DNA of 13,152 nucleotides from a virus (Duplodnaviria; Heunggongvirae; Uroviricota; Caudoviricetes). The notes beneath the pieces are model-generated. The model made no database searches. It was given only the letters and a program-made list of their open reading frames with translations, and had not been told where the DNA came from. The stretch lies in IMG/VR virus record IMGVR_UViG_2698536428_000004, positions 1 to 13,152 of that record. The stretch is one strand, 5' to 3'. Numbering within the stretch: the stretch's first letter is position 1; every line of letters begins with the position of its first letter. This document shows positions 1 through 13,152 of this stretch, in pieces. The position numbers were made by a program, and so were the translations under genes.

Positions 1-166
1 ACGTCATCGCGGTGAACGTACCGTCCTGGTTGGGGAACACGCCACATACCAGAGATTCGTTGTTGCCAAGATCGATAGTATCCATGCTGACCTCATTTCC
101 CCTTAACGCCGGGGTAGCGGAACAAAAACCTGCTGCATAGTTATTAAAGTCGAACCCTGCCATCAT
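1..166 (-). CDS. Partial CDS, 5' portion only (continues past the window start); hypothetical protein
   Basis: Open minus-strand frame from ATG at 166 (alternative ATG at 85 with GAGGT 5 nt upstream) running off the window edge with no stop; translation begins MMAGFDFNNYAAGFCSATPALRGNEVSMDTIDLGNNESLVCGVFPNQDGTFTAMT. Not in the ORF track because it is truncated. No family recognised. Confidence 0.3.
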   Translation of the reverse strand, partial: MMAGFDFNNYAAGFCSATPALRGNEVSMDTIDLGNNESLVCGVFPNQDGTFTAMT

Positions 167-325
167 GTTCTTACGCCTCGGGCTGGCTACTTAACCCCTG
201 ACCACTGCCTGGTAACTCGAAGTATTGCCTGGCGTTCTGTGGGGCGGGGTGGGTTGATGAAATAATGATGCACTTTTAAAGTTATGATGTCAACACTTAT
301 AAAGTTAGCTTTTGATCAATAAAAA

Positions 326-350
326 CCGCCTCGTGTGAAGCGGTTCTGCG
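326..350 (-). terminator. Rho-independent terminator downstream of the toxin gene
   Basis: On the minus strand, AACCGC-TTCACACGAG-GCGGTT hairpin followed by TTTTTATTG, immediately 3' of the toxin stop at 362. Confidence 0.5.
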
Positions 351-361
351 AAAAAAGAAGA

Positions 362-643
362 TTATCCAGGAAATTGTCGTCTGGAGTGGGTGACACTTAC
401 TATTTCAACACTCGAAGCGGCTACACGGTACAGAATGATATAGTTAGGATGAGCTACAATCTCACGCAAGCCAAACGCTCTGTCGCTTGATGGGTATAAG
501 TACGGATGTTCAGATAAAGCTAAAACACATGTCTCAATGCGAATCTTTAGCCTGCGTGCGGCATGGAGATTTTCTTTTGCAATATAGGCTACGATCTGAC
601 GTAAATCATCACGTGCAGAAGGTAGCCATAAAATGGGCAGCAT
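362..643 (-). CDS. Type II toxin, ParE/RelE superfamily
   Basis: 93 aa ORF (MLPILWLPSARDDLRQIVAYIAKE...IVSVTHSRR) with the layout of ParE/RelE plasmid-stabilisation toxins; its start overlaps the upstream antitoxin stop by 1 nt (ATGA), the classic antitoxin-then-toxin arrangement. Confidence 0.75.
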   Translation of the reverse strand: MLPILWLPSARDDLRQIVAYIAKENLHAARRLKIRIETCVLALSEHPYLYPSSDRAFGLREIVAHPNYIILYRVAASSVEIVSVTHSRRQFPG

Positions 644-834
644 TACACACTCCCGCTAGTCGCAGCAATTTGGGCAATGAGATTTTCCATTTCTGCCATT
701 ACATCATCATGAGGAATTGCAGGGCGCGGATCTGCAAGATTTGCAGCTACTTTTGCACGTAGCCATTCGTTGTAATTATTTTCTTGCTCAACGGTTTCAA
801 ACTCAGAAACCATCGGCGAAAGGGCAGTGTTCAT
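643..834 (-). CDS. Type II antitoxin (ParD/RHH-like), partner of the ParE/RelE toxin
   Basis: 63 aa when started at MNTALSPMVSEF; AGGAGG lies 5 nt upstream of this ATG (plus-strand cctcct at 842-847). The longer track ORF (to 897) has no RBS. Acidic C-terminus typical of antitoxins; overlaps the toxin start. Confidence 0.65.
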   Translation of the reverse strand: MNTALSPMVSEFETVEQENNYNEWLRAKVAANLADPRPAIPHDDVMAEMENLIAQIAATSGSV

Positions 835-863
835 AACATACCTCCTTTGGCTTATGATGTAGA

Positions 864-1271
864 CTATGCTCGGTGCCCTTTCTGGGCAGCGAGCCATCTT
901 GCAACAGTGCGCTCCATTGATTCTTTTTTGTCTTTCATGTCTTTAAGCATTTTTTCTTGATCTTCCTCTGGAAATGCTCCGAATGTTTGAAGCAGTTCCA
1001 TTTGCCTGGGGCCTATTTTCATAGTATCTGGCACCACAACCTGCTCTTCTTCGTTTGGCGGTAACATAAACCAATATGGGGGATAACCCGTTACTTCAGA
1101 AAGTTTATCAAGATTAGCTGTTGATGGACTTGTGATTCCGTGAACCCACTTTTGTACCGATTGCTGGGCAACACCAATCCTGCGGGCTAGTTCTGCCTGC
1201 TTAAGTCCTGTTTTTTCCAGTACCAATTTTATTCGGTACGTGGTTATTTCAAGGGTGGTCATTCGCTTCAT
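864..1271 (-). CDS. Prophage repressor, XRE-family HTH (DicA/CI-like), no S24 peptidase domain
   Basis: 135 aa; N-terminal HTH (LKQAELARRIGVAQQSVQKWVHG) matches XRE/Cro-CI DNA-binding domains; transcribed divergently from a Cro-like gene. Size and organisation resemble DicA of Qin-type prophages. Start may be ATG 1271 or 1262. Confidence 0.75.
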   Translation of the reverse strand: MKRMTTLEITTYRIKLVLEKTGLKQAELARRIGVAQQSVQKWVHGITSPSTANLDKLSEVTGYPPYWFMLPPNEEEQVVVPDTMKIGPRQMELLQTFGAFPEEDQEKMLKDMKDKKESMERTVARWLAAQKGHRA

Positions 1272-1322
1272 GCATTCATTTTACATAAAAAAAGTGTAAC
1301 TAGCACAATTAGCTTAAAGGTG

Positions 1323-1351
1323 TTGATAAACTAACTTTAAAAGTGTATAAA
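1323..1351 (+). promoter_or_regulatory. Candidate sigma-70 early promoter for the Cro-like gene, inside the divergent operator region
   Basis: TTGATA (1323-1328), 17 nt spacer, TATAAA (1346-1351), about 28 nt upstream of the ATG at 1379. The surrounding intergenic region (1272-1378) contains an inverted repeat TTAAAG-N15-CTTTAA and repeated AAGTGTA motifs that may be operator sites. Confidence 0.4.
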
Positions 1352-1378
1352 TCATGGTGATTCACTGGAGATAACGAT

Positions 1379-1645
1379 ATGCATGAATGTTTAAAAAATA
1401 AAATTCACCAAAGAGGGTTATCCCAAGCAGGTATTGCTCGTTTGATTGGATTACCGCAACAGGTTGTGTCTCGATGGGCTAATGGTCAGCAGGTCCCTGC
1501 ATCAAGGGTTCTGCAACTTTGTGAGATTATGGCGTGGGAGGTTACCCCCCACGAACTCCGACCTGATATTTATCCTAACCCAACAGACGGCTTGCCTGCT
1601 GAGTTTCAGACTAGCACACAGCCAGCGACGGGAGTTGATTCATGA
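1379..1645 (+). CDS. Cro-like HTH regulator (YdaS/DicC-like)
   Basis: 88 aa; GGAGA RBS upstream; HTH segment (LSQAGIARLIGLPQQVVSRWANGQ) and an ELRPDI motif recalled from YdaS-type Cro-like proteins; divergent from the repressor; stop overlaps the next gene (ATGA). Confidence 0.7.
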   Translation: MHECLKNKIHQRGLSQAGIARLIGLPQQVVSRWANGQQVPASRVLQLCEIMAWEVTPHELRPDIYPNPTDGLPAEFQTSTQPATGVDS

Positions 1646-2067
1646 AAATCAAGCATGAGCACATCCGCATGGCGATGAATGCCTGGGCATATCCTGACGG
1701 TGAGAAGGTGCCAGCTGCTGCTATTGCCAGAGCGTATTTTGAACTGGGGATGACATATCCCGAGTTGCACAACGACGACAGGCACAACGCGCTCTATCTC
1801 AACACCCAAAAGATTTTCCGTTGGCTGGATAAAGACACTCCTGATGCTGTTGAGAAAATTCAGGCATTGTTACCGGCGATCGAAAGGGCAATGCCACCTC
1901 CGCTGGTAGCCCGAATGCGCAGCCACAGTTCCGCTTATTTTCGGGAGCTGGTGGAGACGCAGGAACGGCTAGTGAAAGATATCGATGATTTCGTTGCATC
2001 AGCGATCGTTCTGTTCGACCAGATGAATCGTGGTGGTCCGGCGGGTAATTCCGTGGCTGTGCATTGA
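1642..2067 (+). CDS. YdaT-like protein (CII-like regulator, formerly annotated as a toxin)
   Basis: 141 aa starting MKIKHEH, translationally coupled to the Cro-like gene; size and position match YdaT of Rac-type prophages (from memory, not verified by search). Confidence 0.55.
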   Translation: MKIKHEHIRMAMNAWAYPDGEKVPAAAIARAYFELGMTYPELHNDDRHNALYLNTQKIFRWLDKDTPDAVEKIQALLPAIERAMPPPLVARMRSHSSAYFRELVETQERLVKDIDDFVASAIVLFDQMNRGGPAGNSVAVH

Positions 2068-2138
2068 CTGAAAATATTTATACCGGATCGCTTCCGGCAA
2101 TTCGTGAGTAAAAAGATTCGGTCTCAGAAGAGGTGAGT

Positions 2139-3179
2139 ATGGCTAATGCCTGGCTCAGATTATGGCATGACATGCCAAATGACCCTAAGTGGCGAACAAT
2201 TTCCAGGGTGTCAGGACAGCCAATCGCAACAGTGATGGCTGTGTATATCCACCTTCTGGTGAGCGCGTCACGAAATGTCACGACATGTCACGGCGTGTCA
2301 CTACGTGGTCACATTGATGTCACAACGGAAGATTTAGCAAGTGCACTTGATGTGACGGAAGAAGTAATTGATTCAATTTTGCAGGCGATGCAGGGGCGGG
2401 TGCTTGATGGAGATTTAATCACTGGATGGGAAAAACGCCAGGTAGCGAAAGAGGATAACGGCAACGTTTCGCAAACCGCGAAATCCCCGGCAGAGCGTAA
2501 GAGAGCACAACGCGAGAGGGAAAAATTACGAAAACAGAATGAGGGGTGTCACGATGAGTCACGCATATGTCACGACATGTCACTACGAGTCACGACAGAT
2601 AAAGATACAGATAAAGAATTAAACCCCACACATAACGCGCGCGTGCGCGAGAGTGCTCCGACCAGTGAATCGAACGGTACGCCGTTGCAGGCAGCGGAAC
2701 CTGATTACCAGGAAAGCCTGAGCGAACCCATCGGGAAGTTTCCGATGGCCGGTGGCTGGCATCCGTCGCCGGATTTTCGACGGCGGGCTGCACTGTGGGG
2801 AGTGGCTCTGCCGGAGCCTGAATTTACACCTGCTGAACTTGCCGCCTTCAGGGACTACTGGGCAGCTGAGGGGAAAGTTTTTACGCAGGTTCAGTGGGAG
2901 CAGAAATTCGCCCGTCACGTAAATCACGTCAGGGCGCAGGTTAAACCAGTCAGCAAGGGGGTGCGTCATGCAGCAGCACCAGGTGGCACCGCATCACGGG
3001 CAGTTCGGGAAATTCGGGCAGCACGTGAGCAGTGGGAACGTGAAAACGGATTTGTCAGCGACGGAAACGGCGTGGAAGCTGTGGGAGCTCATGGGGGAGG
3101 TTTATTCAAACCGCTGGACTCAGAAGAACGGGGCCGCACCTTCGAAGCTCTGGATTGCCCAGATTGGCGCGATGACTGA
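2139..3179 (+). CDS. Replication initiation protein (lambda O analogue; possibly DUF1376/YdaU-like)
   Basis: ATG at 2139 preceded by GAGGTG; 346 aa. Occupies the O position ahead of a P-like gene and contains two intragenic GTCAC iteron arrays plus an AT-rich tract, as in the lambda ori inside O. The 3' end is uncertain because the P-like frame overlaps from 2968. Confidence 0.55.
   Translation: MANAWLRLWHDMPNDPKWRTISRVSGQPIATVMAVYIHLLVSASRNVTTCHGVSLRGHIDVTTEDLASALDVTEEVIDSILQAMQGRVLDGDLITGWEKRQVAKEDNGNVSQTAKSPAERKRAQREREKLRKQNEGCHDESRICHDMSLRVTTDKDTDKELNPTHNARVRESAPTSESNGTPLQAAEPDYQESLSEPIGKFPMAGGWHPSPDFRRRAALWGVALPEPEFTPAELAAFRDYWAAEGKVFTQVQWEQKFARHVNHVRAQVKPVSKGVRHAAAPGGTASRAVREIRAAREQWERENGFVSDGNGVEAVGAHGGGLFKPLDSEERGRTFEALDCPDWRDD
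2267..2323 (+). repeat. Iteron array 1: six GTCAC-containing direct repeats at 10-11 bp spacing (candidate ori)
   Basis: GTCAC at 2267, 2277, 2287, 2297, 2308, 2319 (units such as GTCACGAAAT, GTCACGACAT, GTCACGGCGT); an inverted copy (TGTGAC) near 2352. Confidence 0.6.
2548..2625 (+). repeat. Iteron array 2: five GTCAC repeats followed by an AT-rich tract (candidate ori unwinding element)
   Basis: GTCAC at 2548, 2558, 2569, 2579, 2589; the unit GTCACGACAT is shared with array 1; followed by AGATAAAGATACAGATAAAGAATTAAA (2597-2623). Confidence 0.6.
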
Positions 3180-3633
3180 ACAGCAAATCAGGCTGGTCTG
3201 CCGTCAGTGCATGGACCGCTGCCGGGCGGGTGAAACGTGGCCCCCGGACCTGGCTGAGTTTGTTGCGCTGATTTCGGAGAGTGGGGCAAATCCATTTGGT
3301 CTTACGGTGGATGCCGTGATGGAAGAGTACCGGCGCTGGCGCAATGAATCCTGGCGGTACGACGGGAGTGATAAATACCCGTGGCCACAGCCTGTGCTGT
3401 ACCACATTTGCCTCGAGATGCGCACCAGAGGGATTGAACGTCAGATGACTGAAAGTGAGCTGAAACGACTTGCAGAACGACTGTTGACCAAATGGGCAAA
3501 GAATGTTGGTAACGGCATGAGTGTTCCGCCAGTGCGACGACAACTGGAAGGGCCAAAACACCCGCCAGGGCCAACGCCAATTGAGTTACTGAAACAGGAA
3601 TATGAGCGCCGGAAAGCGGCTGGTTTTGTCTGA
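2968..3633 (+). CDS. Replication protein P-like helicase loader
   Basis: 221 aa; ATG 2968 preceded by AAGGGGGTG; the segment LWIAQIGAMTEQQIRL...WPPDLAEFVALI...YPWPQP...ELKRLAERL parallels recalled lambda P (WVLAFRENGITTMEQV...PSPGQFVAWC...YPWKSN...ELRRKAADEL). Alternative starts at 3091 or 3172. Confidence 0.65.
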   Translation: MQQHQVAPHHGQFGKFGQHVSSGNVKTDLSATETAWKLWELMGEVYSNRWTQKNGAAPSKLWIAQIGAMTEQQIRLVCRQCMDRCRAGETWPPDLAEFVALISESGANPFGLTVDAVMEEYRRWRNESWRYDGSDKYPWPQPVLYHICLEMRTRGIERQMTESELKRLAERLLTKWAKNVGNGMSVPPVRRQLEGPKHPPGPTPIELLKQEYERRKAAGFV

Positions 3634-3666
3634 ATTTGAGAAATGATTTTGTCGGAGGAAATTTTA

Positions 3667-4380
3667 ATGGAAACCGTTTTTGACGCACTGAAAGCACTGA
3701 AAAGAGCCTCTTCACAGGAGGTGTCGGCCCGCCTTGGAATCAGCCGCGAAGATGCTGTCAACGAGCTGTGGAAGCTGAAACGCCGTGGTGAAGCAGATAA
3801 CAAGGGGTCGATGTGGTGGCTGACGATTGAGGCAACTGAAATGGTCACAAAAACCACTGCGGAGATGCTGATTAACTCAATTGAACAGCATGGTCCTCAG
3901 TCGGCTGACGAACTGGCGTTAATGTTCGGGATTACCTCCCGCCGGGCGAATTCAACGCTGGCAATGGCAATAAGCAAAGGTCGTCTGATTCGAGTAAATC
4001 AGAACGGTAAATTTCGTTACTGCCTGTCGGGCGATAATTTACCAGCAGAGCCGAAAGCTGCATCGGTAACGGAAACTGCTGGTAAAGCCTTTCCTCAGAC
4101 AGCAGGTGTTGCGTTACCAGTCCGGGAAGCGGAAACACAGGAAGAAATTAAAACTGAAAGTGTGGCGGTCACAGTGCAGTCACAGCCGTCGTTCACCAGA
4201 AAGCATCCGGATAGTCTGATTTTACCATCGCTGCATGTGGCTAACCGCGAACTGCGCCGGGCAAAAGGTCAGGTTCAGAAGTGGGAGCGTGTCTGCGCCG
4301 CGCTGCGGGAGCTGAACAAGCACCGGGATATTGTCCGACAGATTGTCGATTCCTCCAGTCGTATTGTGTCGGAAAAGTGA
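3667..4380 (+). CDS. Hypothetical prophage protein with two winged-helix-like modules
   Basis: ATG 3667 with GGAGGA 8 nt upstream; 237 aa; two HTH-like segments ([23 protein letters not shown] and [24 protein letters not shown]) and a charged, coiled-coil-like C-terminus. Confidence 0.55.
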
Positions 4381-4395
4381 TTGCCGGGGGCGCTT

Positions 4396-4899
4396 ATGGC
4401 AAAAGTATTTACACAAGAAGAGCGAGAAAAAATTAAAGGGCAGGTTGTTGAACTGGTACGCCGGAGTGGGCGCGAGACGTTACGGCAACTGGAAGCTAAA
4501 ACAGGTGCAACAAGATATCTGGTGAGCGTTCTCGCCAGAGAGCTGGTTGCCAGTGGTGATGTATACAACTCTGTCTACGGGTTATTTCCGTCTGAACAGG
4601 CTCGTAAAGACTGGCAAAACGCCCGCAAAAAACTTTCAAGGGAAAAGGCGAAGAAACCGGCTGTGGTTGATCCGGACCTTATCTGGTCATTACCAGACGG
4701 AGAAATACGCCGCTACGACAGGCGCCTGAACATAATCTGTCGCGAGTGCCGGAATAGTGAAGTTATGCAGCGAGTGCTGGCGTTTTATCAGGGGGTGGGG
4801 TCAGGAGGTGGTGCTGTGAGTGAAATTAGCTATCAGGCTTCAATTTCCGCTGGCATTCGCATCAAAGGAGAGGAGCATGGAAATAAAACCAGAAGATGA
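4396..4899 (+). CDS. Hypothetical protein, N-terminal winged-helix-like domain (possible paralogue of the preceding gene)
   Basis: ATG 4396 (track ORF starts at TTG 4381); 167 aa; N-terminus (GQVVELVRRSGRETLRQLEAKTGATRYLVSVLARELV) resembles the wH modules of the upstream protein; the C-terminal about 25 aa overlap the next gene and may be read-through. Confidence 0.45.
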   Translation: MAKVFTQEEREKIKGQVVELVRRSGRETLRQLEAKTGATRYLVSVLARELVASGDVYNSVYGLFPSEQARKDWQNARKKLSREKAKKPAVVDPDLIWSLPDGEIRRYDRRLNIICRECRNSEVMQRVLAFYQGVGSGGGAVSEISYQASISAGIRIKGEEHGNKTRR

Positions 4900-5233
4900 G
4901 TTAAGTAATATTGTTTTATTTCCGGTAAAAGAGGATGACCCACGTAATCAGGTTAATTTTCTTTATGAGCCATCGGAAAGACCATATTGTCATCACGCCT
5001 CTGTCCGGGTTGACGAAAAAGAGCGTCAGGTCCGCTGTAAAATCTGCGGTGCAGTTGTGGAGCCATTTGACTGGATGCCCTCTGTGGCGAAAAGAGAAAC
5101 CAGACTGGCAGATGATGTAAGGCTCTTGCGCCAGGAGGAACGGGAAAGGCGGAGAAATGTAGAAAAGCTAATTCAGATTGAGCGTAACGCGAAAGCGCGG
5201 ATACGCAGGGCGGCAAAATCAAGAACTGAATAA
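4877..5233 (+). CDS. Hypothetical protein with Cys/His zinc-ribbon-like motif and basic coiled-coil tail
   Basis: ATG 4877 preceded by AGGAGAGGAG; 118 aa; CHH...CKIC cluster then an R/E-rich helix (RLLRQEERERRRNVEKLIQIERNAKARIRRAAK). Confidence 0.55.
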   Translation: MEIKPEDELSNIVLFPVKEDDPRNQVNFLYEPSERPYCHHASVRVDEKERQVRCKICGAVVEPFDWMPSVAKRETRLADDVRLLRQEERERRRNVEKLIQIERNAKARIRRAAKSRTE

Positions 5234-5326
5234 TTAAATTTAGCACTGTTAAAAATTTAATCCTTAACCGGAGGGATTTCTGCACCCTCAGAACATCAGG
5301 AGGCCGTTCGAAATGGCGGTAGTGAA

Positions 5327-5509
5327 ATGCGAAAATTCAAAATAATTATTGAAACGGGAATAGCTGGTGGAGATTTTGAGGATGTATTCGAAGTAGATGA
5401 TGACGCAACACCTGATGAAATTCATGACGAAGCAAAAGAAATTTTCTTTAACTACTGCAATTACTCATACCACGAAATAAAAGATGAAGAGGAAGGACAA
5501 AATGGCTGA
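5327..5509 (+). CDS. Small acidic hypothetical protein (60 aa)
   Basis: ORF MRKFKIIIETGIAGGDFEDVFEVDDDATPDEIHDEAKE..., strongly D/E-rich; overlaps the next gene by 8 nt; weak own RBS, but a strong SD serves a 10-codon upstream ORF at 5313. Confidence 0.45.
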   Translation: MRKFKIIIETGIAGGDFEDVFEVDDDATPDEIHDEAKEIFFNYCNYSYHEIKDEEEGQNG

Positions 5510-5678
5510 TTTTGGTTCAACTAAATATAACGCCAGTTTTGAAGAATGGCATGAACTGTTAATGGATTATGCAGAGTTACGCGGTGGAAGTGCCGCTGAT
5601 GCTGAAGCATGGCGTGATGATTATGAAGCAGGGAAAACTCCGGTCGAAGCATATTGTGATGAGTGGGGCGATGAATGA
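5502..5678 (+). CDS. Small acidic hypothetical protein (58 aa)
   Basis: ATG 5502 preceded by GAGGAAGGA; MADFGSTKYNASFEEWHELLMDYAELRGGSAADAEAWRDDYEAGKTPVEAYCDEWGDE; stop overlaps the next start (ATGA). Confidence 0.5.
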   Translation: MADFGSTKYNASFEEWHELLMDYAELRGGSAADAEAWRDDYEAGKTPVEAYCDEWGDE

Positions 5679-6034
5679 GCGAGATTAATTATCAGGAAGG
5701 GCATGAAAAGGCAGGGCAGGCAAAACCAGTGGCATGGCGATATCGCTACGTGAAAAAAGGCGTTACAGACTTTCAGGGGAAGCAGTGGGCTGGTGACTGG
5801 AAATATGTCCAGACAAAAGAAGATTGTAACGACAGACCGAACTATGAAATTCAGGCGTTATTCACGGCCCCGCCAGCCCCGGTGACATCAGAAGGACTAG
5901 TTAAAGCCGTGTGCTTTTATGAACAGGTAAAGCGTGAGAATCCACCAGTCGAAACAGGTGCATGGAAAGATGCTGTTGACTGGGTACTCAAAGAGGCTTG
6001 CCAGGCTGTAAGCATTAGCAACAAAGGGGGGTGA
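5675..6034 (+). CDS. Hypothetical protein (119 aa)
   Basis: Translationally coupled ORF (ATGA overlap with the upstream gene); no recognisable motif. Confidence 0.5.
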   Translation: MSEINYQEGHEKAGQAKPVAWRYRYVKKGVTDFQGKQWAGDWKYVQTKEDCNDRPNYEIQALFTAPPAPVTSEGLVKAVCFYEQVKRENPPVETGAWKDAVDWVLKEACQAVSISNKGG

Positions 6035-6037
6035 GTA

Positions 6038-6214
6038 ATGCGTGTGGCATGTATCAGTTTGTTACCGTACCCGACTCGTTTTTTGGCTTCTGCGCTAATT
6101 GCAAAGCCGCGTGTCCTGATGGATGACAGCATCATCCCGACACCAAAGCGCCGCCATACCGGTATTGCAGCGGCACGACGAGCAGCAAAGAAACGCAGGA
6201 GAGCAAAACGATGA
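6038..6214 (+). CDS. Small hypothetical protein (58 aa): hydrophobic N-terminus, very basic C-terminus
   Basis: Not in the ORF track (<60 aa). ATG 6038 preceded by AAGGGGGGTGA; hand-translated as MRVACISLLPYPTRFLASALIAKPRVLMDDSIIPTPKRRHTGIAAARRAAKKRRRAKR; stop overlaps the next ATG (ATGA). Confidence 0.35.
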   Translation: MRVACISLLPYPTRFLASALIAKPRVLMDDSIIPTPKRRHTGIAAARRAAKKRRRAKR

Positions 6215-6405
6215 AAAACCGTAAAGCAAAAATTCTGTTAGCTCGCAGAAACGGTGTTGGTGTCTGGCGGTGGGTGAGGATTAGTAACAGACGGGTGAGG
6301 TTGACGGGGTGTTGCGGTGTTATGGGGCACAGTTGTTGCAAAAAGCCCAGCGCGGCGCAAAACCGCTGGAAAAACCACTGTTATCTGCGCACTAAAGGAG
6401 AGTGA
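6211..6405 (+). CDS. Small basic Cys-rich hypothetical ORF (64 aa); coding status uncertain
   Basis: ATG 6211 preceded by AGGAGA and coupled to neighbours, but the DNA is G/T-rich with GGGTGAGG repeats, so it may be regulatory DNA rather than coding. Confidence 0.3.
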   Translation: MKNRKAKILLARRNGVGVWRWVRISNRRVRLTGCCGVMGHSCCKKPSAAQNRWKNHCYLRTKGE

Positions 6406-6406
6406 G

Positions 6407-6922
6407 ATGGCGTTAACACACCGCGAACTCTGTCAGATTGCGTACAAGTTCCTTAAGCGCAACGGGTTCAAGGTTTGCTTTCATGACCGCTTTATAGCTG
6501 TAACCAGTACCGGAGAACAGCCAGATGCTATGGGATTCAGAAATTCAGCATCATGCCTGATAGAGGCGAAGTGTTCTCGTGCTGACTTGTTGGCAGATAG
6601 AAAAAAGCGTTTCCGTAAAAATCCCTCTCTTGGCATGGGCGACTGGAGATTCTTTATTAGTGAGCCGGGAATTATTTCAATTGAGGATTTACCACCTGGC
6701 TGGGGATTACTTCACGTTGTTAACGGAAGAGTACGGAAAGTACATGGGTGGCCCAAGGGTAATTGCTGTTGGGGTGATCCTGACGATAAGCCATTTACTG
6801 GAAATAAGCAGGTTGAATGCGATTACATGTTGTCTGCATTAAGGCGCATGGAGTTGAGGGGACACCTTAATGAAATATATGACGGTGTAATCGTTAATAA
6901 GCAAGAAGGAAGCGCGGCATGA
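6407..6922 (+). CDS. Putative PD-(D/E)xK-type nuclease (VRR-NUC/MmcB-like), hypothetical
   Basis: ATG 6407 preceded by AAGGAGA; 171 aa; motif GEQPDAMGF...[11 protein letters not shown] matches the D...(D/E)xK core of restriction-endonuclease-fold nucleases. Assignment is by motif only. Confidence 0.5.
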
Positions 6923-7263
6923 CCACTTTTACCAGAGAGCAGTTAATAGCTCACGCAGAGGAGACTATTGAAGCACAGAGACTGTGCATACCGGGCACAA
7001 TCGACCATGACATCATCCGCACATATAAGATGGATATTGCTGTTCTGGAAATCGCACTGGCATCGCTGGCAGCAGAGCCAGCCGGTAAATTGCATGAATA
7101 CAAACCAGTGGGACATCAGCGTCTGGTCGACGAGTTAACCATGCTGGTAAAGCAGTTAACCTGGCAACTGAGGAAAACGAAGCCGGACTGTAAATTGCCG
7201 GGTAAGGCGATGGACTACCTGAAGCGAAACGGACTGATAAGCGCAGAGGATGTTTTACGATGA
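6919..7263 (+). CDS. Hypothetical protein (114 aa)
   Basis: ORF with ATGA overlap to the upstream gene; no motif recognised. Confidence 0.5.
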
Positions 7264-7343
7264 CCTGGCCTGAGGCATTCACAACGGTAGGGATCGCAAT
7301 GGCGGTGGCGCTGGTGGTGTATTCGATTTGTCGCTGGGGATAA
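7260..7343 (+). CDS. Candidate 27-aa single-pass membrane peptide
   Basis: Not in the ORF track. ATG 7260 overlaps the upstream stop (ATGA); AGAGGA 8 nt upstream; hand-translated as [27 protein letters not shown] with a hydrophobic core. Confidence 0.3.
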
Positions 7344-7350
7344 AAACGAT

Positions 7351-7378
7351 TTGCGGGGAAAGGATAGTTAAGTAGAAT
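7351..7378 (+). promoter_or_regulatory. Candidate hok mRNA promoter
   Basis: TTGCGG (7351-7356), 16 nt spacer, TAGAAT (7373-7378); the predicted 5' end near 7381-7385 coincides with the upstream complementary box of the hok mRNA. Confidence 0.35.
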
Positions 7379-7435
7379 TGCTGCGGGTGCTTGAGGCTAT
7401 CTGTCTCAGGCATGAATACCAAAAGGCAGATAGAG

Positions 7436-7515
7436 AAAAGCCCCAGTTAACATTGCGCGTCCGGCAAGACGCTTAACATTAATCTGAGGCCATATCTATG
7501 CTCTACACACGTAGG
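7436..7515 (-). ncRNA. sok: Candidate Sok-like antisense RNA (approximate boundaries)
   Basis: By analogy with hok/sok loci the antisense RNA lies opposite the hok leader. The minus strand shows a possible -35/-10 (TTGCCT, 17 nt, TAACCT; plus coordinates about 7551-7523) and a hairpin GCGTC-TTGCCG-GACGC (plus coordinates about 7459-7474). Ends are not defined by sequence alone. Confidence 0.3.
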
Positions 7516-7554
7516 TTAGCCTCTTACGTGCCGAAAGGCAAGGAGAAGCAGGCT

Positions 7555-7710
7555 ATGAAGCAGCAAAAGGCGATGCTAATCGCCCTTATCGTCATCTGTT
7601 TAACCGTCATAGTGACGGCACTGGTAACGAGGAAAGACCTCTGCGAGGTACGAATCCGAACCGGCCAGACGGAGGTCGCTGTCTTCACAGTCTACGAACC
7701 TGAGGAGTAA
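7555..7710 (+). CDS. hok: Hok/Gef-family type I toxin (51 aa membrane peptide)
   Basis: MKQQKAMLIALIVICLTVIVTALVTRKDLCEVRIRTGQTEVAVFTVYEPEE closely parallels recalled Hok ([52 protein letters not shown]); AAGGAGA RBS; the track ORF 7498-7710 is an in-frame 5' extension. Confidence 0.85.
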   Translation: MKQQKAMLIALIVICLTVIVTALVTRKDLCEVRIRTGQTEVAVFTVYEPEE

Positions 7711-7778
7711 GAGACCAGGCGGGGGAGAAATCTCCCGCCACCTCTGATGTGTCAGGCATCCTCAACGCACCCGCGCTT

Positions 7779-7806
7779 AACCCGCTTCGTCGGGTTTTGT
7801 TTTTTC
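7779..7806 (+). terminator. Rho-independent terminator of the hok transcript
   Basis: AACCCG-CTTCGT-CGGGTT hairpin followed by TTGTTTTTT. Confidence 0.6.
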
Positions 7807-7877
7807 CTGGCATTCTGGTTTACAATTCGCATGCCAGCCTGAACAACTGGCACCTGCTGCGCCAGCAGAGACAACCG

Positions 7878-8156
7878 ATGGCGCACGATACCAAATTATA
7901 CAATTCTGATAATTCAGCCGTCTTTGCCAGCAGGCACGGGCGGCGTTCTCATGCATTCAAATCTGACTGGTTCCAGCACGCCCCATGCACTGAAGAACAG
8001 GCCGAATGGCTGATTCAGAACTACCGCAGACGTGGGTATGAGTTTAGGAAAACCCTCAGCCTCGATTATCGTCACTGGATAATCTCCGTCAGGCTTCCTT
8101 ACTCTGAACGCCCACCGCGTCCGTCCCGCACATTCCAGCAACGCATCTGGAGGTAA
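7878..8156 (+). CDS. Hypothetical protein (92 aa); position corresponds to rem of Qin-type prophages
   Basis: Internal ATG at 7878 chosen because the upstream part of the track ORF (from 7749) overlaps the hok terminator; weak RBS; family not recognised from sequence. Confidence 0.4.
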   Translation: MAHDTKLYNSDNSAVFASRHGRRSHAFKSDWFQHAPCTEEQAEWLIQNYRRRGYEFRKTLSLDYRHWIISVRLPYSERPPRPSRTFQQRIWR

Positions 8157-8157
8157 C

Positions 8158-9207
8158 GTGCGGGTATTACTTCGACCTGTTCTGGTTCCGGAACTCGGGC
8201 TGGTGGTCCTTAAGCCAGGCCGTGAATCCATGCCTATATTCCACAATACCCGGGTACTGGTGGAGCCGGAACCGAAAAGCATGCGTAATCTGCCGTCCGG
8301 GGTCGTTCCTGCCGTTCGCCAGCCGCTGGTGGAAGACAAAACATTGCTGCCGTTTTTCAGTAACGCACGGGTAATTCGTGCTGCTGGTGGTGCTGGTGCA
8401 TTGTCTGACTGGCTGTTGCGCCATATTAAATCCTGCCAGTGGCCACACGGCGATTATCATCACAGCGAAACCGTTATTCACCGTTATGGTACCGGCGCAA
8501 TGGTGTTGTGCTGGCACTGCGACAACCAGCTGCGTGACCAGACATCCGAATCACTCGAGCAACTTGCTCATCAAAACTTGTCAGCATGGATGATTGACGT
8601 CATACGCCATGCAATGAATGGCACGCAGGAGCGGGAATTATCGCTGGCTGAATTATCCTGGTGGGCGGTCTGCAATCAGGTGGCGGACGCGCTACCAGAG
8701 GCAGCATTACGTCGTTCTCTGGGGTTACGTGCGGAAAAAATTCGCTCAGTATACCGCGAGAGCGACATCGTGCCGGGAGAGCAGACCGCCACCAGCATCC
8801 TGAAACAGCGCACAAAAAATCTTGCGCCGCTGCCTCACGCCCACCAGCAACAGAACTCACCACAGGAAAAGACGGTGGTCAGCATTGCCGTTGATCCTGA
8901 GTCTCCGGAATCTTTCATGAAACGACCTAAACGTCGCCGCTGGGTTAACGAGAAATACAAACGCTGGGTGAAGACACAGCCGTGTGCGTGTTGTGGTAAG
9001 CCAGCCGACGATCCCCATCACCTGATTGGTCATGGTCAGGGCGGAATGGGGACAAAATCTCACGATATTTTCACGCTACCGCTGTGTCGGGAGCATCACA
9101 ACGAGCTTCATGCGGATCCGCTGGCGTTCGAAGAAAAGCATGGTTCTCAGGTTGATTTAATTTTTCGTTTTCTTGATCACGCCTTTGCAACTGGCGTGCT
9201 TGGGTAA
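8158..9207 (+). CDS. DUF968-family protein with C-terminal HNH-like Cys/His motif (YdfU/Ref-like)
   Basis: 349 aa from GTG 8158 (GGAGG upstream); C-terminal CACCGKPADDPHHLIGHGQGG...LCREHHNELH is an HNH/zinc-binding signature; length and position (hok, small ORF, this gene, then antiterminator) mirror ydfU of Qin. Confidence 0.65.
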   Translation: MRVLLRPVLVPELGLVVLKPGRESMPIFHNTRVLVEPEPKSMRNLPSGVVPAVRQPLVEDKTLLPFFSNARVIRAAGGAGALSDWLLRHIKSCQWPHGDYHHSETVIHRYGTGAMVLCWHCDNQLRDQTSESLEQLAHQNLSAWMIDVIRHAMNGTQERELSLAELSWWAVCNQVADALPEAALRRSLGLRAEKIRSVYRESDIVPGEQTATSILKQRTKNLAPLPHAHQQQNSPQEKTVVSIAVDPESPESFMKRPKRRRWVNEKYKRWVKTQPCACCGKPADDPHHLIGHGQGGMGTKSHDIFTLPLCREHHNELHADPLAFEEKHGSQVDLIFRFLDHAFATGVLG

Positions 9208-9219
9208 AAGAGGTGACTG

Positions 9220-9579
9220 ATGCTCATAGATTTGGTTTTACCTTACCCGCCGACGGTGAACACTTACTGGCGACGCCGTGGCAGCACATATTTTGTATCA
9301 AAAGCCGGGGAGCGTTATCGCCGGGCAGTGGCGCTTATTGTTCGCCAGCAGCGCTTGAAATTAAGCCTGTCCGGACGGTTGGCAATAAAAATTATTGCAG
9401 AACCACCGGATAAGCGCCGCCGTGACCTGGACAATATTCTGAAAGCACCGCTGGATGCGCTTACGCATGCGGGGTTGTTAATGGACGATGAGCAGTTTGA
9501 TGAAATCAATATTGTACGTGGTCAGCTTGTTCTTGGTGGTCGGCTGGGTGTGAAGATTTACAAAATTGAGAGTGAGTGA
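9220..9579 (+). CDS. rusA: Crossover junction endodeoxyribonuclease RusA (Holliday junction resolvase)
   Basis: 119 aa; AAGAGGTGA RBS; LPYPPTVNTYWRR...PDKRRRDLDNILKAPLDALTHAGLLMDDEQ parallels E. coli RusA (LPWPPSNNRYYRH...[30 protein letters not shown]). Confidence 0.85.
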   Translation: MLIDLVLPYPPTVNTYWRRRGSTYFVSKAGERYRRAVALIVRQQRLKLSLSGRLAIKIIAEPPDKRRRDLDNILKAPLDALTHAGLLMDDEQFDEINIVRGQLVLGGRLGVKIYKIESE

Positions 9580-10148
9580 GCGTAAATATGATATATCCGG
9601 AAATTACAGGCAAAAGCGGCGAACATTTACGCCTGAACACGCTGGAAGCAGTCTGGATCCAGGGGAAATTACGGATGTGGGGGCGGTGGTCGTATATCGG
9701 TGGGGGTAAATCCGGAAATATGTTTAACCGGTTACTGGTTTCGAAAAAGCTGACGAAAACAGCAGTTAATGAGGTTTTACGCAGAATGAAGAAATCCGGG
9801 CTGGAAAAACCGGAACTTGAGGCATTTTTTCGGGATATGACCAGAGGGAAGCAGAAGAGCTGGTTGTCACATTGTACAGACACAGAGGCGTTGATTATTG
9901 ATCGCGTTATCAGTGAGGTGCTTGGGGAATATCCCGGACTAATCAATATTCTCCGGCAAAGGTACGAAGGACGGGGAATGAGCAAACTGAAAATGGCCGA
10001 AAGGTTAAATGCAGATCATCCTGAGTGGACGTTGGTTACGTGCAGACGCCGAATTGATCAGTGGTTGGGGATATCTGAATTTATGTTACATGCCCCCATG
10101 CGTATGGCTTTTGTTACAGAGAAAAAAATGTTGCAAACTGATCAATAA
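9576..10148 (+). CDS. Probable late-gene antiterminator (Q-like), assigned mainly by position
   Basis: 190 aa ORF immediately after rusA (start GTG 9576 or ATG 9588) and immediately before a short region with a strong intrinsic terminator, the position lambdoid phages give to Q; the family was not confirmed by a motif I can name. Confidence 0.4.
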   Translation: MSVNMIYPEITGKSGEHLRLNTLEAVWIQGKLRMWGRWSYIGGGKSGNMFNRLLVSKKLTKTAVNEVLRRMKKSGLEKPELEAFFRDMTRGKQKSWLSHCTDTEALIIDRVISEVLGEYPGLINILRQRYEGRGMSKLKMAERLNADHPEWTLVTCRRRIDQWLGISEFMLHAPMRMAFVTEKKMLQTDQ

Positions 10149-10220
10149 ACTGCTTCAATCCGTATAAGCTTCGCAAGGCTGTATCGCGAGGCGAAATGCA
10201 AGTTTTTTTCGCACAAGGAA

Positions 10221-10243
10221 GCCACCGGAAGGTGGTTTTTTTG
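10221..10243 (+). terminator. Rho-independent terminator (candidate tR-prime-like, Q-antiterminated)
   Basis: GCCACC-GGAA-GGTGG hairpin followed by TTTTTTT, about 75 nt after the Q-like stop; a second T7 run at 10203-10209 lies just upstream. Confidence 0.55.
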
Positions 10244-10365
10244 TGTCCGTAATATACAGCAGCGCAATAAATTCGCTGGTGGTTATTAATACCGTTCTTT
10301 CAGCTTGCTGGCTTTTTCGACAAGAGTTATTGGTGTGTCACGTTAACCGGAAAAGGGAAAAAGAC

Positions 10366-10563
10366 ATGCTGAAACAGCAGGATATGACCGAAACCGCCAG
10401 AGTGGTGTTTAATGAATTAAGCGTCACCGAACCGGCGACAGTCGGGGAGATTGCACAGAATACGTACCTTTCACGCGAACGCTGTCAGTTAATACTGACC
10501 CAGCTTGTTATGGCTGGGCTGGCAGACTATCAGTTCGGTTGTTACAGACGCCTTCAGTCCTGA
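10366..10563 (+). CDS. Small hypothetical protein (65 aa), winged-helix-like
   Basis: ATG 10366 preceded by a purine-rich tract (AAAGGGAAAAAGA); MLKQQDMTETARVVFNELSVTEPATVGEIAQNTYLSRERCQLILTQLVMAGLADY...; a strong terminator overlaps its stop. Confidence 0.4.
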   Translation: MLKQQDMTETARVVFNELSVTEPATVGEIAQNTYLSRERCQLILTQLVMAGLADYQFGCYRRLQS

Positions 10564-10576
10564 AGGCTTTTTTATT
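10550..10576 (+). terminator. Rho-independent terminator
   Basis: GCCTTCAG-TC-CTGAAGGC perfect inverted repeat followed by TTTTTTATTT; the stop codon of the upstream small ORF lies inside the stem. Confidence 0.55.
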
Positions 10577-11131
10577 TGTGGTAAATGGGCGGCTGATGGG
10601 TGTGGTGGTTGTTGCTTTCCCGTTGCTGAAAAAGAAAGCATCAGGCGATTAGCAGGGTATCAGTTACCCGTTGAAATTTTTAAATACCTCACAATTCAGG
10701 CGGTTGACTGTTGTCTGGTTTGCGGGGAGTTTGTTAAAAGAAACTGGCATGGTGAATCCCCCTGTGCGGAGGGGCAATCAGCAACTGGTGTTTTGTCACC
10801 GACCCTTATCCTTTCTGTGCGGGTTCAGGTGCTGATACTGAACTCACCGGGAGGCAACCGGCACCATGCAATGGCACATAGCGCCACTCTCCAGCCCCTC
10901 TCCGGAGGGGCTTTCTTGTGGGCAAAAAAAAGCCTGAGTGGGTTCGGGCAACAGCATGAGATATACATTTTTATAATCGAATGGATTTTAACCAGAATTC
11001 ATAAGGCTGCGCAACTGCGCGGTCTTTTTCGAATTGCGGGCTGTCGTCTCCCTTCTGCCATTGTCCTGTAACTTCCGGACTTCAGCCCGCTCCTTATTTT
11101 ACTCACAATATTATCCCGGCCGGGAGGATTC

Positions 11132-13120
11132 ATGGCATTTAAACACTATGATGTGGTCAGGGCGGCATCGCCGTCAGACCTTGCGGATGCGCTTGCTCAA
11201 AAAATTCGTGAAGGATGGCAACCATACGGCGGGCCGTTTTCTTCGTATACGGATGATGGCGCAGCACTTATTCAGGCGATTGTCGCAGAAGGTGATGTCA
11301 CCACACCTGTGGTGGTGAAGCCGTCGGATGGAGAAGGCACAGTTATCAGCACCACCAGCGAACCGGAGTATTACTTTGTTGTTGTTCTGGCGGGGCAGTC
11401 AAACTCAATGTCTTTTGGTGAAGGGCTGCCGCTGCCGGAGACATATGACCGTCCGGACCCGCGTATTAAACAGCTGGCGCGTCGCAGTACGGTGACGCCG
11501 GGTGGTGCCGCCTGTAAATATAACGACATCATTCCGGCAGACCACTGTCTGCATGATGTGCAGGATATGAGTAACCTGAATCATCCTCATGCAGACCTGA
11601 GTAAGGGACAGTACGGTTGTGTGGGGCATGCTCTGCATGTTGCCAAAAAGCTGCTGCCGTTTATGCCTGCGAATGCGGGTATCCTTCTTGTTCCATGTGG
11701 CCGTGGCGATTCGGGATTTACTGCGGGGGCCGAGGGGGCGTTTAACGAAGCGTCGGGAGCGACCGCAGGCTCGTCCCTGTGGGGGGCGGATAAACCGCTG
11801 TATCATGACCTGGTCAGCAGAACCCGTGCGGCCCTGAAGAAAAATCCGAAGAACGTGCTGTTATCAGTGATCTGGATGCAGGGAGAAAAAGATGTCAGTT
11901 CGGGGAGACATGCAGAACACAATGCGCTTTTCCTTGCCATGGTAAATCAGTTCCGTACGGAACTGGCAGATGTGGCAGAGCAGTGTACTGGCGGGACAAC
12001 GGCCAGCGTCCCGTGGATTTGCGGTGATACCACGTACTACTGGAAGGAAAGGTATGCAGTGCCGTATGAGGCGGTTTACGGTGGGTATAAAGGAAAAGCT
12101 GCGCAGAATATTCACTTTGTGCCGTTGATGACGGATGAGCATGGTGTGAATGTGCCGACAAACGAGCCGTCAGAAGATCCGGACATTATCCCGGCGGGAT
12201 ACTATGGCGCTGCGTCACGCACTGCCAGTAACTGGACGGCAGCCGATCGTAAAACGCACTTCAGTTCATGGGCGCGAAGAGGCCTTGTTTCAGACCGCCT
12301 GGCAGGTGCCATTTTGCAGTACGCCGGGCGGACATTATCGTTCCTTACCGGGCAGAGCGCACCGCAGTCGGGTGGTACAACGCCTGTCAGTCCGGGGACA
12401 CCGGATGTTGAGAAACCGCAGGATGGCGGTGTTGCTGGTACTGGTCATGATGAGGCCGTGAGCAGTACCAGGACGGTGGCTGAATATGATGCGAACAGTG
12501 GAAATGGTGCATTGACAGAGCAGCAGTGGGGCGCTTCCGGCGGCAAAGGCACTGTGACTGATGACGGTGGACGGAAAGCGCTGCGACTGGAAAAACAGCC
12601 CGGTAAACTGACGTCCTGGAAAATGTTCCGTACTATTGCAGTGGAGGAGGCAAAAAATCTTCTCAGCAAGGGGGGGGAAATTGCCGTACGGTTCAAAATT
12701 CCGGATGGAAGCGAGCTGGTGAACGGACAGTTTGTCTTTGGTATCTACTGGCCGGTGTCGCAGTGGGCGTCAGGCGCGACAGCAAACAGTATGCTGGCAT
12801 CATTCTTCCTTCAGACGGATACATCAAATCTTAATCTGATGCACCAGAAGGGCTCCTCGAATGCACAACTGGGTACATTTGGTACGTTTGACCATAACTG
12901 GCATACGGTTGTTTTCCGCTTTGCGGGAAATAACAGCGAAAGAGTTGTTCCGGTGATTGATGGTGCAGAGCAGACGGCATTTGACCTTGTGATGTGGACA
13001 AATGATGGCTTTACAGCAGATACGCTGACGCTGACAGATATCACGGGGGCAAAAGCGACGTATCCGGTACTGCTTGATACGGTCACAGTCAAAGTTAACG
13101 AAAACCGGGAATCAGCATAA
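11132..13120 (+). CDS. nanS: Prophage sialate O-acetylesterase (NanS-p type; DUF1737 N-terminus plus SASA/SGNH esterase domain)
   Basis: 662 aa; GGGAGGA RBS; N-terminus MAFKHYDVVRAASPSDLADAL...; esterase signature VVLAGQSNSM (GQSN catalytic-serine motif); location downstream of the Q/terminator region matches the nanS-p genes of EHEC lambdoid prophages. Confidence 0.75.
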   Translation: MAFKHYDVVRAASPSDLADALAQKIREGWQPYGGPFSSYTDDGAALIQAIVAEGDVTTPVVVKPSDGEGTVISTTSEPEYYFVVVLAGQSNSMSFGEGLPLPETYDRPDPRIKQLARRSTVTPGGAACKYNDIIPADHCLHDVQDMSNLNHPHADLSKGQYGCVGHALHVAKKLLPFMPANAGILLVPCGRGDSGFTAGAEGAFNEASGATAGSSLWGADKPLYHDLVSRTRAALKKNPKNVLLSVIWMQGEKDVSSGRHAEHNALFLAMVNQFRTELADVAEQCTGGTTASVPWICGDTTYYWKERYAVPYEAVYGGYKGKAAQNIHFVPLMTDEHGVNVPTNEPSEDPDIIPAGYYGAASRTASNWTAADRKTHFSSWARRGLVSDRLAGAILQYAGRTLSFLTGQSAPQSGGTTPVSPGTPDVEKPQDGGVAGTGHDEAVSSTRTVAEYDANSGNGALTEQQWGASGGKGTVTDDGGRKALRLEKQPGKLTSWKMFRTIAVEEAKNLLSKGGEIAVRFKIPDGSELVNGQFVFGIYWPVSQWASGATANSMLASFFLQTDTSNLNLMHQKGSSNAQLGTFGTFDHNWHTVVFRFAGNNSERVVPVIDGAEQTAFDLVMWTNDGFTADTLTLTDITGAKATYPVLLDTVTVKVNENRESA

Positions 13121-13152
13121 CCGGCAAAAAAAACCGCCAGCTGGCCTGAAAC

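Follow-up and report, generated by a model that had tools for sequence, protein, structure and literature searches.

Head-family-associated variation in the DUF1737 domain of a prophage NanS-p-type sialate O-acetylesterase

Genes for NanS-p esterases are among the commonest accessory genes of Escherichia coli prophages, and they are usually cited as textbook phage-borne metabolic help for enteric pathogens. The locus described here raises the question of whether such a gene serves the bacterium, the phage particle, or both. It is an ATG-initiated open reading frame (ORF) at positions 11132-13120 of the plus strand of a 13,152-nucleotide stretch of a virus of the class Caudoviricetes (IMG/VR record IMGVR_UViG_2698536428_000004, positions 1 to 13,152), the whole of which we refer to as the window. 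The 662-residue product combines an N-terminal DUF1737 domain, a central esterase domain and a C-terminal lectin-like domain, and an earlier note on the window had described the gene as a NanS-p-type sialate O-acetylesterase and a metabolic moron of the late region. Across prophage loci, we find that the DUF1737 variant co-varies with the family of head genes downstream, and because of this co-variation we favor a virion-linked role over that of cargo purely for the benefit of the host.

Co-variation of the DUF1737 variant with the head-gene family

Residues 1-18 are identical in the window protein, in the protein of the closest phage record (Escherichia phage PhiR5_1, hypothetical protein XSB41304.1, 93% protein identity) and in gp84, the homologue in phage phi24B, while residues 19-50, which include the loop around Tyr42 of phi24B, diverge sharply among the three. 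Between the window protein and that of PhiR5_1, identity falls to 47% in residues 19-50 from 90-100% over the rest; against gp84, identity is 64% over residues 1-55 and 100% over residues 1-18. Because the three proteins differ in this segment and the phages differ in their head genes, we compared DUF1737 types with head-gene families across loci. These were drawn from IMG/VR with 10-kb flanks in four scans with different query alleles, plus five loci from annotated records, giving 208 loci in total, 175 of them non-redundant, and the head module downstream was typed by tblastn (portal, large terminase and capsid proteins). For the test, 63 non-redundant loci qualified by having both a typed head and a full-length protein that bears DUF1737.

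Four head families lie downstream of these genes: a fusion of ClpP protease and major capsid protein (ClpP-MCP; PF25209), lambda gpE (PF03864), an HK97-like fusion of S78 protease and capsid protein (PF05065), and the phi24B type (PF13252). Type A, the variant of the window, accompanied ClpP-MCP heads at 15 of 15 loci, as did the divergent types A' (2/2 loci) and A'' (1/1 locus, L178). E. coli S19-651 and JNEC-KY177 are examples of strains in which a type A allele accompanies a ClpP-MCP head. Type B was found with lambda heads at 21 loci, with HK97-like heads at 13 and with a ClpP-MCP head at one (L075), and types C and C' with phi24B-type heads at nine, a further type C locus (L122) having an HK97-like head. 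DUF1737 type and head family are concordant at 61 of the 63 loci (A and A' 17/17; B with lambda or HK97-like heads 34/35; C and C' 9/10; plus L178), a total that includes A'' even though A'' was put with type A only after its ClpP-MCP head had been seen and is not a test. By inspection, types A and A', both with ClpP-MCP heads, agree at roughly half of residues 19-55. The remainder of the protein has no link to head type: one cluster of esterase/C-terminal "bodies" was found with all four head families, its N-types A, B and C switching accordingly, and the body cluster of the window was found with ClpP-MCP (type A), HK97-like (type B) and lambda (type B) heads.

To locate the association along the DNA, we used the area under the curve (AUC) as a measure of how well pairwise identity predicts shared head type. 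For residues 21-60 the AUC was 0.79-0.82, and 0.89-0.94 with the lambda and HK97-like heads merged, compared with 0.45-0.60 for residues 61-660. The flanks gave 0.47-0.57 over 3 kb upstream and 0.46-0.58 over the initial 3 kb downstream, where the lysis genes lie. From about +3.5 kb the AUC climbs to 1.0, trivially, since this is the head module itself. The head-associated codons form an island, about 5 kb of unassociated DNA away from the head genes. Plain physical linkage was rejected as the cause, because no part of the gene lies farther from the head genes than the N-terminal codons do, and the intervening DNA is unassociated. Hidden subtypes of type B that would split lambda from HK97-like heads were likewise rejected, because identical N-termini occur with both.

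Instead, sampling, common ancestry or hot spots of recombination at the borders of domains might have produced the association as an artifact, with no meaning for function, and the gene would be a plain mosaic NanS-p allele. The data come from one species, many of the IMG/VR contigs stem from related isolates, and the pairwise statistics are non-independent; in addition, type B goes with two head families and two loci break the pairing. With one representative per haplotype combination (n=31), however, residues 19-55 still gave an AUC of 0.86 (label-permutation p=0.0005), residues 56-78 gave 0.65 (p=0.007), and all body segments gave 0.48-0.49 (p>0.5). Permuting labels only inside body clusters with more than one head group, of which there are eight, gave p=0.003, DNA nearer the head genes than the N-terminal codons has no association, and the divergent types A and A' share ClpP-MCP heads, as does A'' (L178), albeit grouped post hoc. 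The pairing was also replicated in a second collection: outside IMG/VR, the N-type predicted the annotated head family in four of four RefSeq genomes whose bodies are at least 95% identical to that of the window. We therefore regard an artifact as very improbable.

Proposed capsid docking, host benefit and the moron question

A preprint on phi24B offers a structural context for this pattern. It reports gp84 among the most intense bands of the virion, as a protein of about 70 kDa in fresh virions and a fragment of about 35 kDa in stored ones, and it locates a DUF1737 hexamer (residues 2-57) inside the cavity at the center of certain capsid hexons, where Tyr42 is the anchoring "tooth" (10.64898/2026.04.10.717836). 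As its simplest reading, the co-variation suggests selection for fit between the variable segment of DUF1737 and some product of the head module, and by analogy with the phi24B structure the partner is most likely the capsid protein itself. Given the cryo-electron microscopy of the preprint and the co-variation found here, we lean slightly toward capsid docking of the window allele.

As a whole, we favor the following account and consider it fairly probable. A three-domain esterase, made from the late operon, would carry in its N-terminal DUF1737 a capsid-docking tag whose variable segment (residues ~19-55) fits the family of head genes in the phage; the type A tag of the window would pair with heads built from the ClpP-protease/major-capsid fusion protein. 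The esterase and lectin-like domains would be displayed on virions through disordered linkers and shed later by cleavage in those linkers, and the freed enzyme would deacetylate sialic acids of mucus, which surviving lysogens would then catabolize. The published benefit to the host would here be a consequence and need not be the sole selected function.

Several observations weigh against this account. Virion display is known only from phi24B, a podovirus with a T=9 head and a type C domain, and from one preprint, and the type A proteins are known here from sequence alone. The window ends 32 nt past the esterase stop codon and its own head module lies beyond, so that its head type is inferred from its relatives (L001, L209). 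The phi24B anchor Tyr42 corresponds to Asp42 in the window protein, the nearest tyrosine being residue 39 in a loop of equal length; as the Tyr42 loop is the most variable, head-associated segment, another anchor residue may be expected. The DUF1737 part of the AlphaFold2 model described below is unreliable (predicted local distance difference test, pLDDT, 32-57), and for this reason the variable residues were placed by alignment to the residues of the preprint. Type B sequences are identical across the lambda gpE and HK97-like capsid families, which misfits strict one-to-one matching, and there are two exceptions, L075 joining type B to a ClpP-MCP head and L122 joining type C to an HK97-like one; both could be recent recombinants or defective prophages. 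The loci are almost all from E. coli, and many of the prophages may be defective. Finally, the co-variation does not single out one partner, which could be another product of the head module, for example the maturation protease, which might process the linkers.

A virion-borne enzyme might alternatively act on the bacterial surface, O-deacetylating O-antigen, capsule (e.g., O-acetylated polysialic acid) or another glycan for adsorption, or destroying receptors at release in the manner of viral haemagglutinin-esterases. This was raised as an open possibility for the family (PMC8065619), and it would fit both virion association and co-variation. Docking in phi24B is nevertheless on capsid hexons, not on the tail (10.64898/2026.04.10.717836), NanS and the tested NanS-p enzymes work on free and mucin-bound sialic acids (PMC8065619), and the C-terminal domain is only remotely like sialic-acid- or ganglioside-binding lectin domains. 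A role at the bacterial surface is, in our estimate, improbable.

The older explanation is that NanS-p is a pure metabolic moron or public good: enzyme from lysing cells deacetylates Neu5,9Ac2, siblings grow on the sialic acid of mucin, the virion is not involved, and DUF1737 is irrelevant or serves folding or solubility. According to two publications on the family, recombinant NanS-p enzymes of EDL933 and O104:H4 act on Neu5,9Ac2 and mucin O-glycans and the genes support growth on Neu5,9Ac2 (PMC8065619, PMC10462455), and the several copies per genome (median 3, in up to 8 places) also fit a public good. However, co-variation of DUF1737 with the head across some 5 kb of unassociated DNA is unexpected for virion-independent cargo, phi24B gp84 is among the strongest virion bands, and the gene appears to be wired into the late operon. 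A consensus scan of the plus strand from 9500 to 13152 found no sigma-70-like site, although weak promoters may escape such a scan, and three terminator-like hairpins lie between the gene for the late antiterminator Q and the esterase gene. Family members are induced together with the late genes (PMC10462455, PMC8065619), and the window gene would likewise be expressed from a late operon under Q control, in a lambdoid E. coli prophage. The N-terminus is without a hydrophobic stretch (maximum Kyte-Doolittle mean over 12 residues, 0.53), from which we infer that there is no signal peptide; the protein would, for that reason, leave the cell only at lysis by holin and endolysin. Pure host-benefit cargo is thus an unlikely description.

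The earlier note's label "metabolic moron" is thus borne out only in part: a moron is expected to have its own promoter and terminator, so that a repressed prophage can express it without relying on phage operons, and no tie to virion or lytic functions, but this gene, with no promoter of its own found, sits behind three hairpins, its DUF1737 co-varies with the head family, and its phi24B homologue is in virions. The two views may be compatible, and the host benefit may be real as well.

In its broadest form, the hypothesis is that DUF1737 is a general, exchangeable capsid-docking tag in which a segment of about 35 residues is recombined to match the capsid (A with ClpP-MCP, C with phi24B-type, B with lambda and HK97-like heads), and that many E. 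coli "NanS-p" genes, that of the window included, encode virion-displayed mucin-modifying enzymes rather than host-benefit morons; we rate the chances of this generalization as about even. If true, it would extend a single-phage observation of the preprint to at least four capsid families. If the enzyme is capsid-tethered by a head-matched tag, primary selection may act on the phage, through mucus adherence, penetration or release, the host growth benefit may be a by-product, and DUF1737 would offer a naturally modular tag for display on lambdoid capsids. The novelty lies not in the gene itself but in the comparative evidence that DUF1737 tag and head family are matched in at least three to four capsid families.

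The gene, its domains and its genomic setting

The identification of the gene product as a NanS-p-type sialate O-acetylesterase, made in the earlier note, is borne out. Three Pfam domains each exceed their gathering cut-offs, DUF1737 (PF08410) at residues 3-53 (E=1.9e-11), SASA at residues 84-279 (E=1.4e-10) and DUF6645 (PF20350) at residues 511-619 (E=4.4e-30); PHROG 143 spans the whole protein (E=1.4e-296), and an NCBIfam search of the 662-residue protein gave no hit. In a PDB search, the NanS/YjhS structure 3PT5 matched residues 77-397 (E=5.8e-114). The catalytic blocks are GQSN at 88-91 with Ser90, QGE at 250-252 and RKTH at 373-376 with His376, and all of the NanS/NanS-p catalytic blocks of PMC10462455, which gives the last as RSSH, RASH or RPTH, are found in the window protein. 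To judge from these matches, the 662-codon ORF is not a chance ORF. Homology to 3PT5, intact Ser and His blocks, an architecture of three domains and a place between Q and the lysis genes together indicate that the protein is almost certainly a member of the NanS-p family, and both the GQSN motif and the DUF1737-type N-terminus singled out by the earlier note are present. By all the sequence-level defining features that were tested, each of which is present, the gene is an uncharacterized new allele of a known and characterized family. Its central SGNH/SASA domain would, with Ser90 and His376, O-deacetylate sialic acids, for example Neu5,9Ac2. For the window itself the message is modest: it holds a correctly recognized member of a known family. 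Features of the gene and its surroundings are given in Table 1.

Table 1. Coordinates of the esterase gene, its parts and the elements upstream of it in the window
Feature	Position	Strand	Basis or remark
Q-like late antiterminator gene	9576..10148	+	Pfam DUF1133 E=4.1e-104; Phage_antitermQ E=1e-7; RefSeq relative annotated DUF1133 family protein
Terminator-like hairpin CCACC-GGAA-GGTGG, then T7	10222..10242	+	sequence and palindrome scan; ~75 nt past the Q stop; candidate tR'-type terminator, putative function
ORF of 65 aa (198 nt) between Q and small RNA	10366..10563	+	conserved; "hypothetical protein" in all relatives examined
Terminator-like hairpin (10550-10567) and T-run closing the 65-aa ORF	10550..10577	+	7-bp stem, tail TTTTTTATTT
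STnc100-family small RNA gene, full-length	10718..10923	+	Rfam RF02076, 140.6 bits against a gathering score of 47; ends in terminator hairpin 10893-10912
Shine-Dalgarno-like GGGAGGA	11122..11128	+	sequence; 3 nt between its end and the ATG
nanS-p-type gene	11132..13120	+	662 codons plus stop; Pfam, PHROG and PDB matches
DUF1737 domain, variant type A (DALAQKIREGWQPYGGPFSSYTDDGAALIQ)	11132..11296 (codons 1-55)	+	PF08410; proposed capsid-docking tag
Replaced DNA patch, ~120 nt	11177..11296 (codons 16-55)	+	20-80% identical to PhiR5_1; remaining gene 93-100%
Linker 1	11297..11365 (codons 56-78)	+	begins with TTP; predicted disordered, pLDDT <50
SGNH/SASA esterase domain	11366..12331 (codons 79-400)	+	3PT5 match, motifs, Foldseek TM 0.81
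Ser90 codon	11399-11401	+	motif position within esterase domain
His376 codon	12257-12259	+	motif position within esterase domain
Linker 2	12332..12472 (codons 401-447)	+	Pro/Gly/Ser/Thr-rich, TTP at 416-418; predicted disordered
C-terminal lectin-like jelly-roll domain (DUF6645)	12473..13099 (codons 448-656)	+	6YP6 E=6.6e-47; PF20350 E=4.4e-30; model TM 0.91

The C-terminal domain of about 210 residues (448-656) has no catalytic motif, as the earlier note had remarked of the part beyond the esterase, and in the PDB search it matched 6YP6, a chain deposited as "NanS-p" (E=6.6e-47). PMC10462455 and PMC8065619 describe 6YP6 as a crystal structure solved for the C-terminal domain of phi24B vb_24B_21, a lectin-like jelly roll (Franke et al. 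2020). The proposed sugar-site aromatics are kept, phi24B Y510, Y515, Y540 and F611 aligning with F534, Y539, F559 and F627 of the window protein. Structure prediction, which had been proposed as a check, is consistent with this: an AlphaFold2 model, built on a 24-sequence alignment from E. coli alone and with a mean pLDDT of 63.5, predicts residues 446-656 confidently as a beta-sandwich and is of low confidence in both linkers (56-78 and 400-444). In Foldseek comparisons, the modeled C-terminal domain superposes on 6YP6 with a template modeling score (TM) of 0.91 and a root-mean-square deviation of 1.7 A, and the modeled core on 3PT5 with a TM of 0.81 at 54% identity; more remotely, it matches lectin folds, among them those of the sialic-acid-binding domain in Vibrio cholerae sialidase (2W68) and of the Hc domains in clostridial neurotoxins. 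The domain is very probably a lectin-like carbohydrate-binding module, with sugar binding predicted, and would probably keep the enzyme on mucin glycans. The earlier note's suggestion of a carbohydrate-binding domain thus finds support in the homology to 6YP6 and the retained aromatics, and this reading of the NanS-p C-terminus is already published.

Both linkers of the window protein contain the tripeptide TTP (11300-11308 and 12377-12385; codons 57-59 and 416-418), where phi24B gp84 has SSP. The phi24B preprint suggests paired SSP cleavage or autoprocessing motifs in the linkers (10.64898/2026.04.10.717836). Nearly every family member has [ST][ST]P directly behind DUF1737, but about half have none in linker 2, and for the latter reason paired SSP-type motifs were rejected as a general processing signal.

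Relatives of the gene are abundant and mosaic. Some match occurs in 1207 of 5426 complete E. coli genomes, at a median of 3 places per genome and up to 8, and a full-length match to the window allele in only 36, the best at 99.7% (S19-651) and the next at 99.6%. Among phage records, 351 contain a relative, mostly Shiga toxin (Stx) phages with about 55-61% protein identity; the protein collection holds at least 1568 clusters, nearly all named from E. coli and one from Citrobacter, and near-identical copies in RefSeq carry generic names. Coverage of the window by the complete E. coli genomes of the collection stays below 80% in every case. The best relative (L001) is collinear with it over 7337-13145 alone, at 99.1%, and the early region (1-7336) has 80-96% matches to other prophages; by this patchwork, the window is a mosaic lambdoid prophage.

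Disrupted nanS-p copies also exist: that of L017 is frameshifted, one in phage VT2-Sakai (AP000422, H75) is interrupted by IS629, and not every copy in a genome is functional. A further group of NanS-p-like esterases lacks DUF1737 (L175-L193, e.g., L186:1509-3563, and L113, L116 and L117). These proteins begin with some 60-80 unrelated residues, "MSDSKWKMLSAMPGEFSVKVAGG..." or "MTSKWVQLSSMPGNF...", and their match to the DUF1737 proteins starts at query residue 34-78. The alternative N-terminal module had no match in Pfam, PHROG or PDB and may be another docking or targeting module. Several of the loci without DUF1737 resemble degraded prophages.

The esterase gene starts 984 nt downstream of the Q-like gene, with the terminator-like hairpins between them, which agrees with the placement downstream of the Q/terminator region given in the earlier note. 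Downstream of the gene, its nearest relatives have first DUF1378 and DUF826 genes, next the holin, lysozyme and Rz-type lysis genes and after these the terminase and head genes; with a holin after the esterase gene in L001, L209-L212 and L003, the location is between Q and holin S. An STnc100-family small RNA gene stands upstream of the esterase gene. STnc100 is related to the PasD small RNAs, and the order PasD/STnc100, sialic acid esterase, holin/lysozyme is a recurrent prophage synteny (10.64898/2026.05.13.724894). Upstream of the Q-like gene, the window also contains a DUF968 gene and a RusA gene, as well as a hok/sok type I toxin-antitoxin locus at 7385-7710 on the plus strand (Rfam sok at 7385-7560, 116 bits; Hok/Gef ORF at 7498-7710, Pfam E=6e-22). 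A scan upstream of the esterase gene found no tRNA genes, unlike in Stx phages, and there are no stx genes upstream of it in the window.

Comparison with known systems

A first comparison is with the NanS-p proteins of the Stx phages 933W and phi24B (L0105, z1466 and vb_24B_21, the last being gp84), which share with the window protein the order DUF1737-SASA-DUF6645, the GQSN, QGE and RxxH blocks, the Q-to-holin site and the aromatic sugar-site positions. Identity to the window protein is about 55% overall (tblastn); by domain, the esterase reaches 70%, the C-terminal domain 44% and residues 19-50 of DUF1737 likewise 44%. The surroundings differ, as the window has an STnc100 small RNA upstream instead of stx or tRNA genes. 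Relative to phi24B NanS-p in particular, the window protein is of type A, with Asp at the Tyr42 position, has TTP rather than SSP in its linkers, and is associated with a ClpP-MCP siphovirus head, not a T=9 podovirus head.

Chromosomal E. coli NanS (YjhS, 3PT5) shares a homologous SGNH-type 9-O-acetyl-N-acetylneuraminate esterase domain. It differs in being a single-domain protein of about 330 residues, without DUF1737 or a lectin-like domain, and in being encoded by a gene of the host chromosome rather than of a prophage late operon.

Capsid decoration proteins offer a third comparison. Phi24B gp84 and T4 Hoc, the latter being the paradigm for mucus adherence (10.64898/2026.04.10.717836), combine a small capsid-binding module, a flexible linker and glycan-directed domains, as the window protein is proposed to do; the DUF1737 of the window, known here from its sequence, is homologous to the capsid-bound part of gp84. 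T4 Hoc differs in that the cargo of gp84-type proteins is an enzyme, reportedly shed by proteolysis (10.64898/2026.04.10.717836).

The closest sequences are those of PhiR5_1 and RefSeq WP_198798562.1; PhiR5_1 and strain S19-651 (99.7% DNA identity) have the same synteny as the window. PhiR5_1 differs in its type B DUF1737 and its lambda gpE/gpD head genes, and its divergence from the window gene is concentrated in a patch of about 120 nt.

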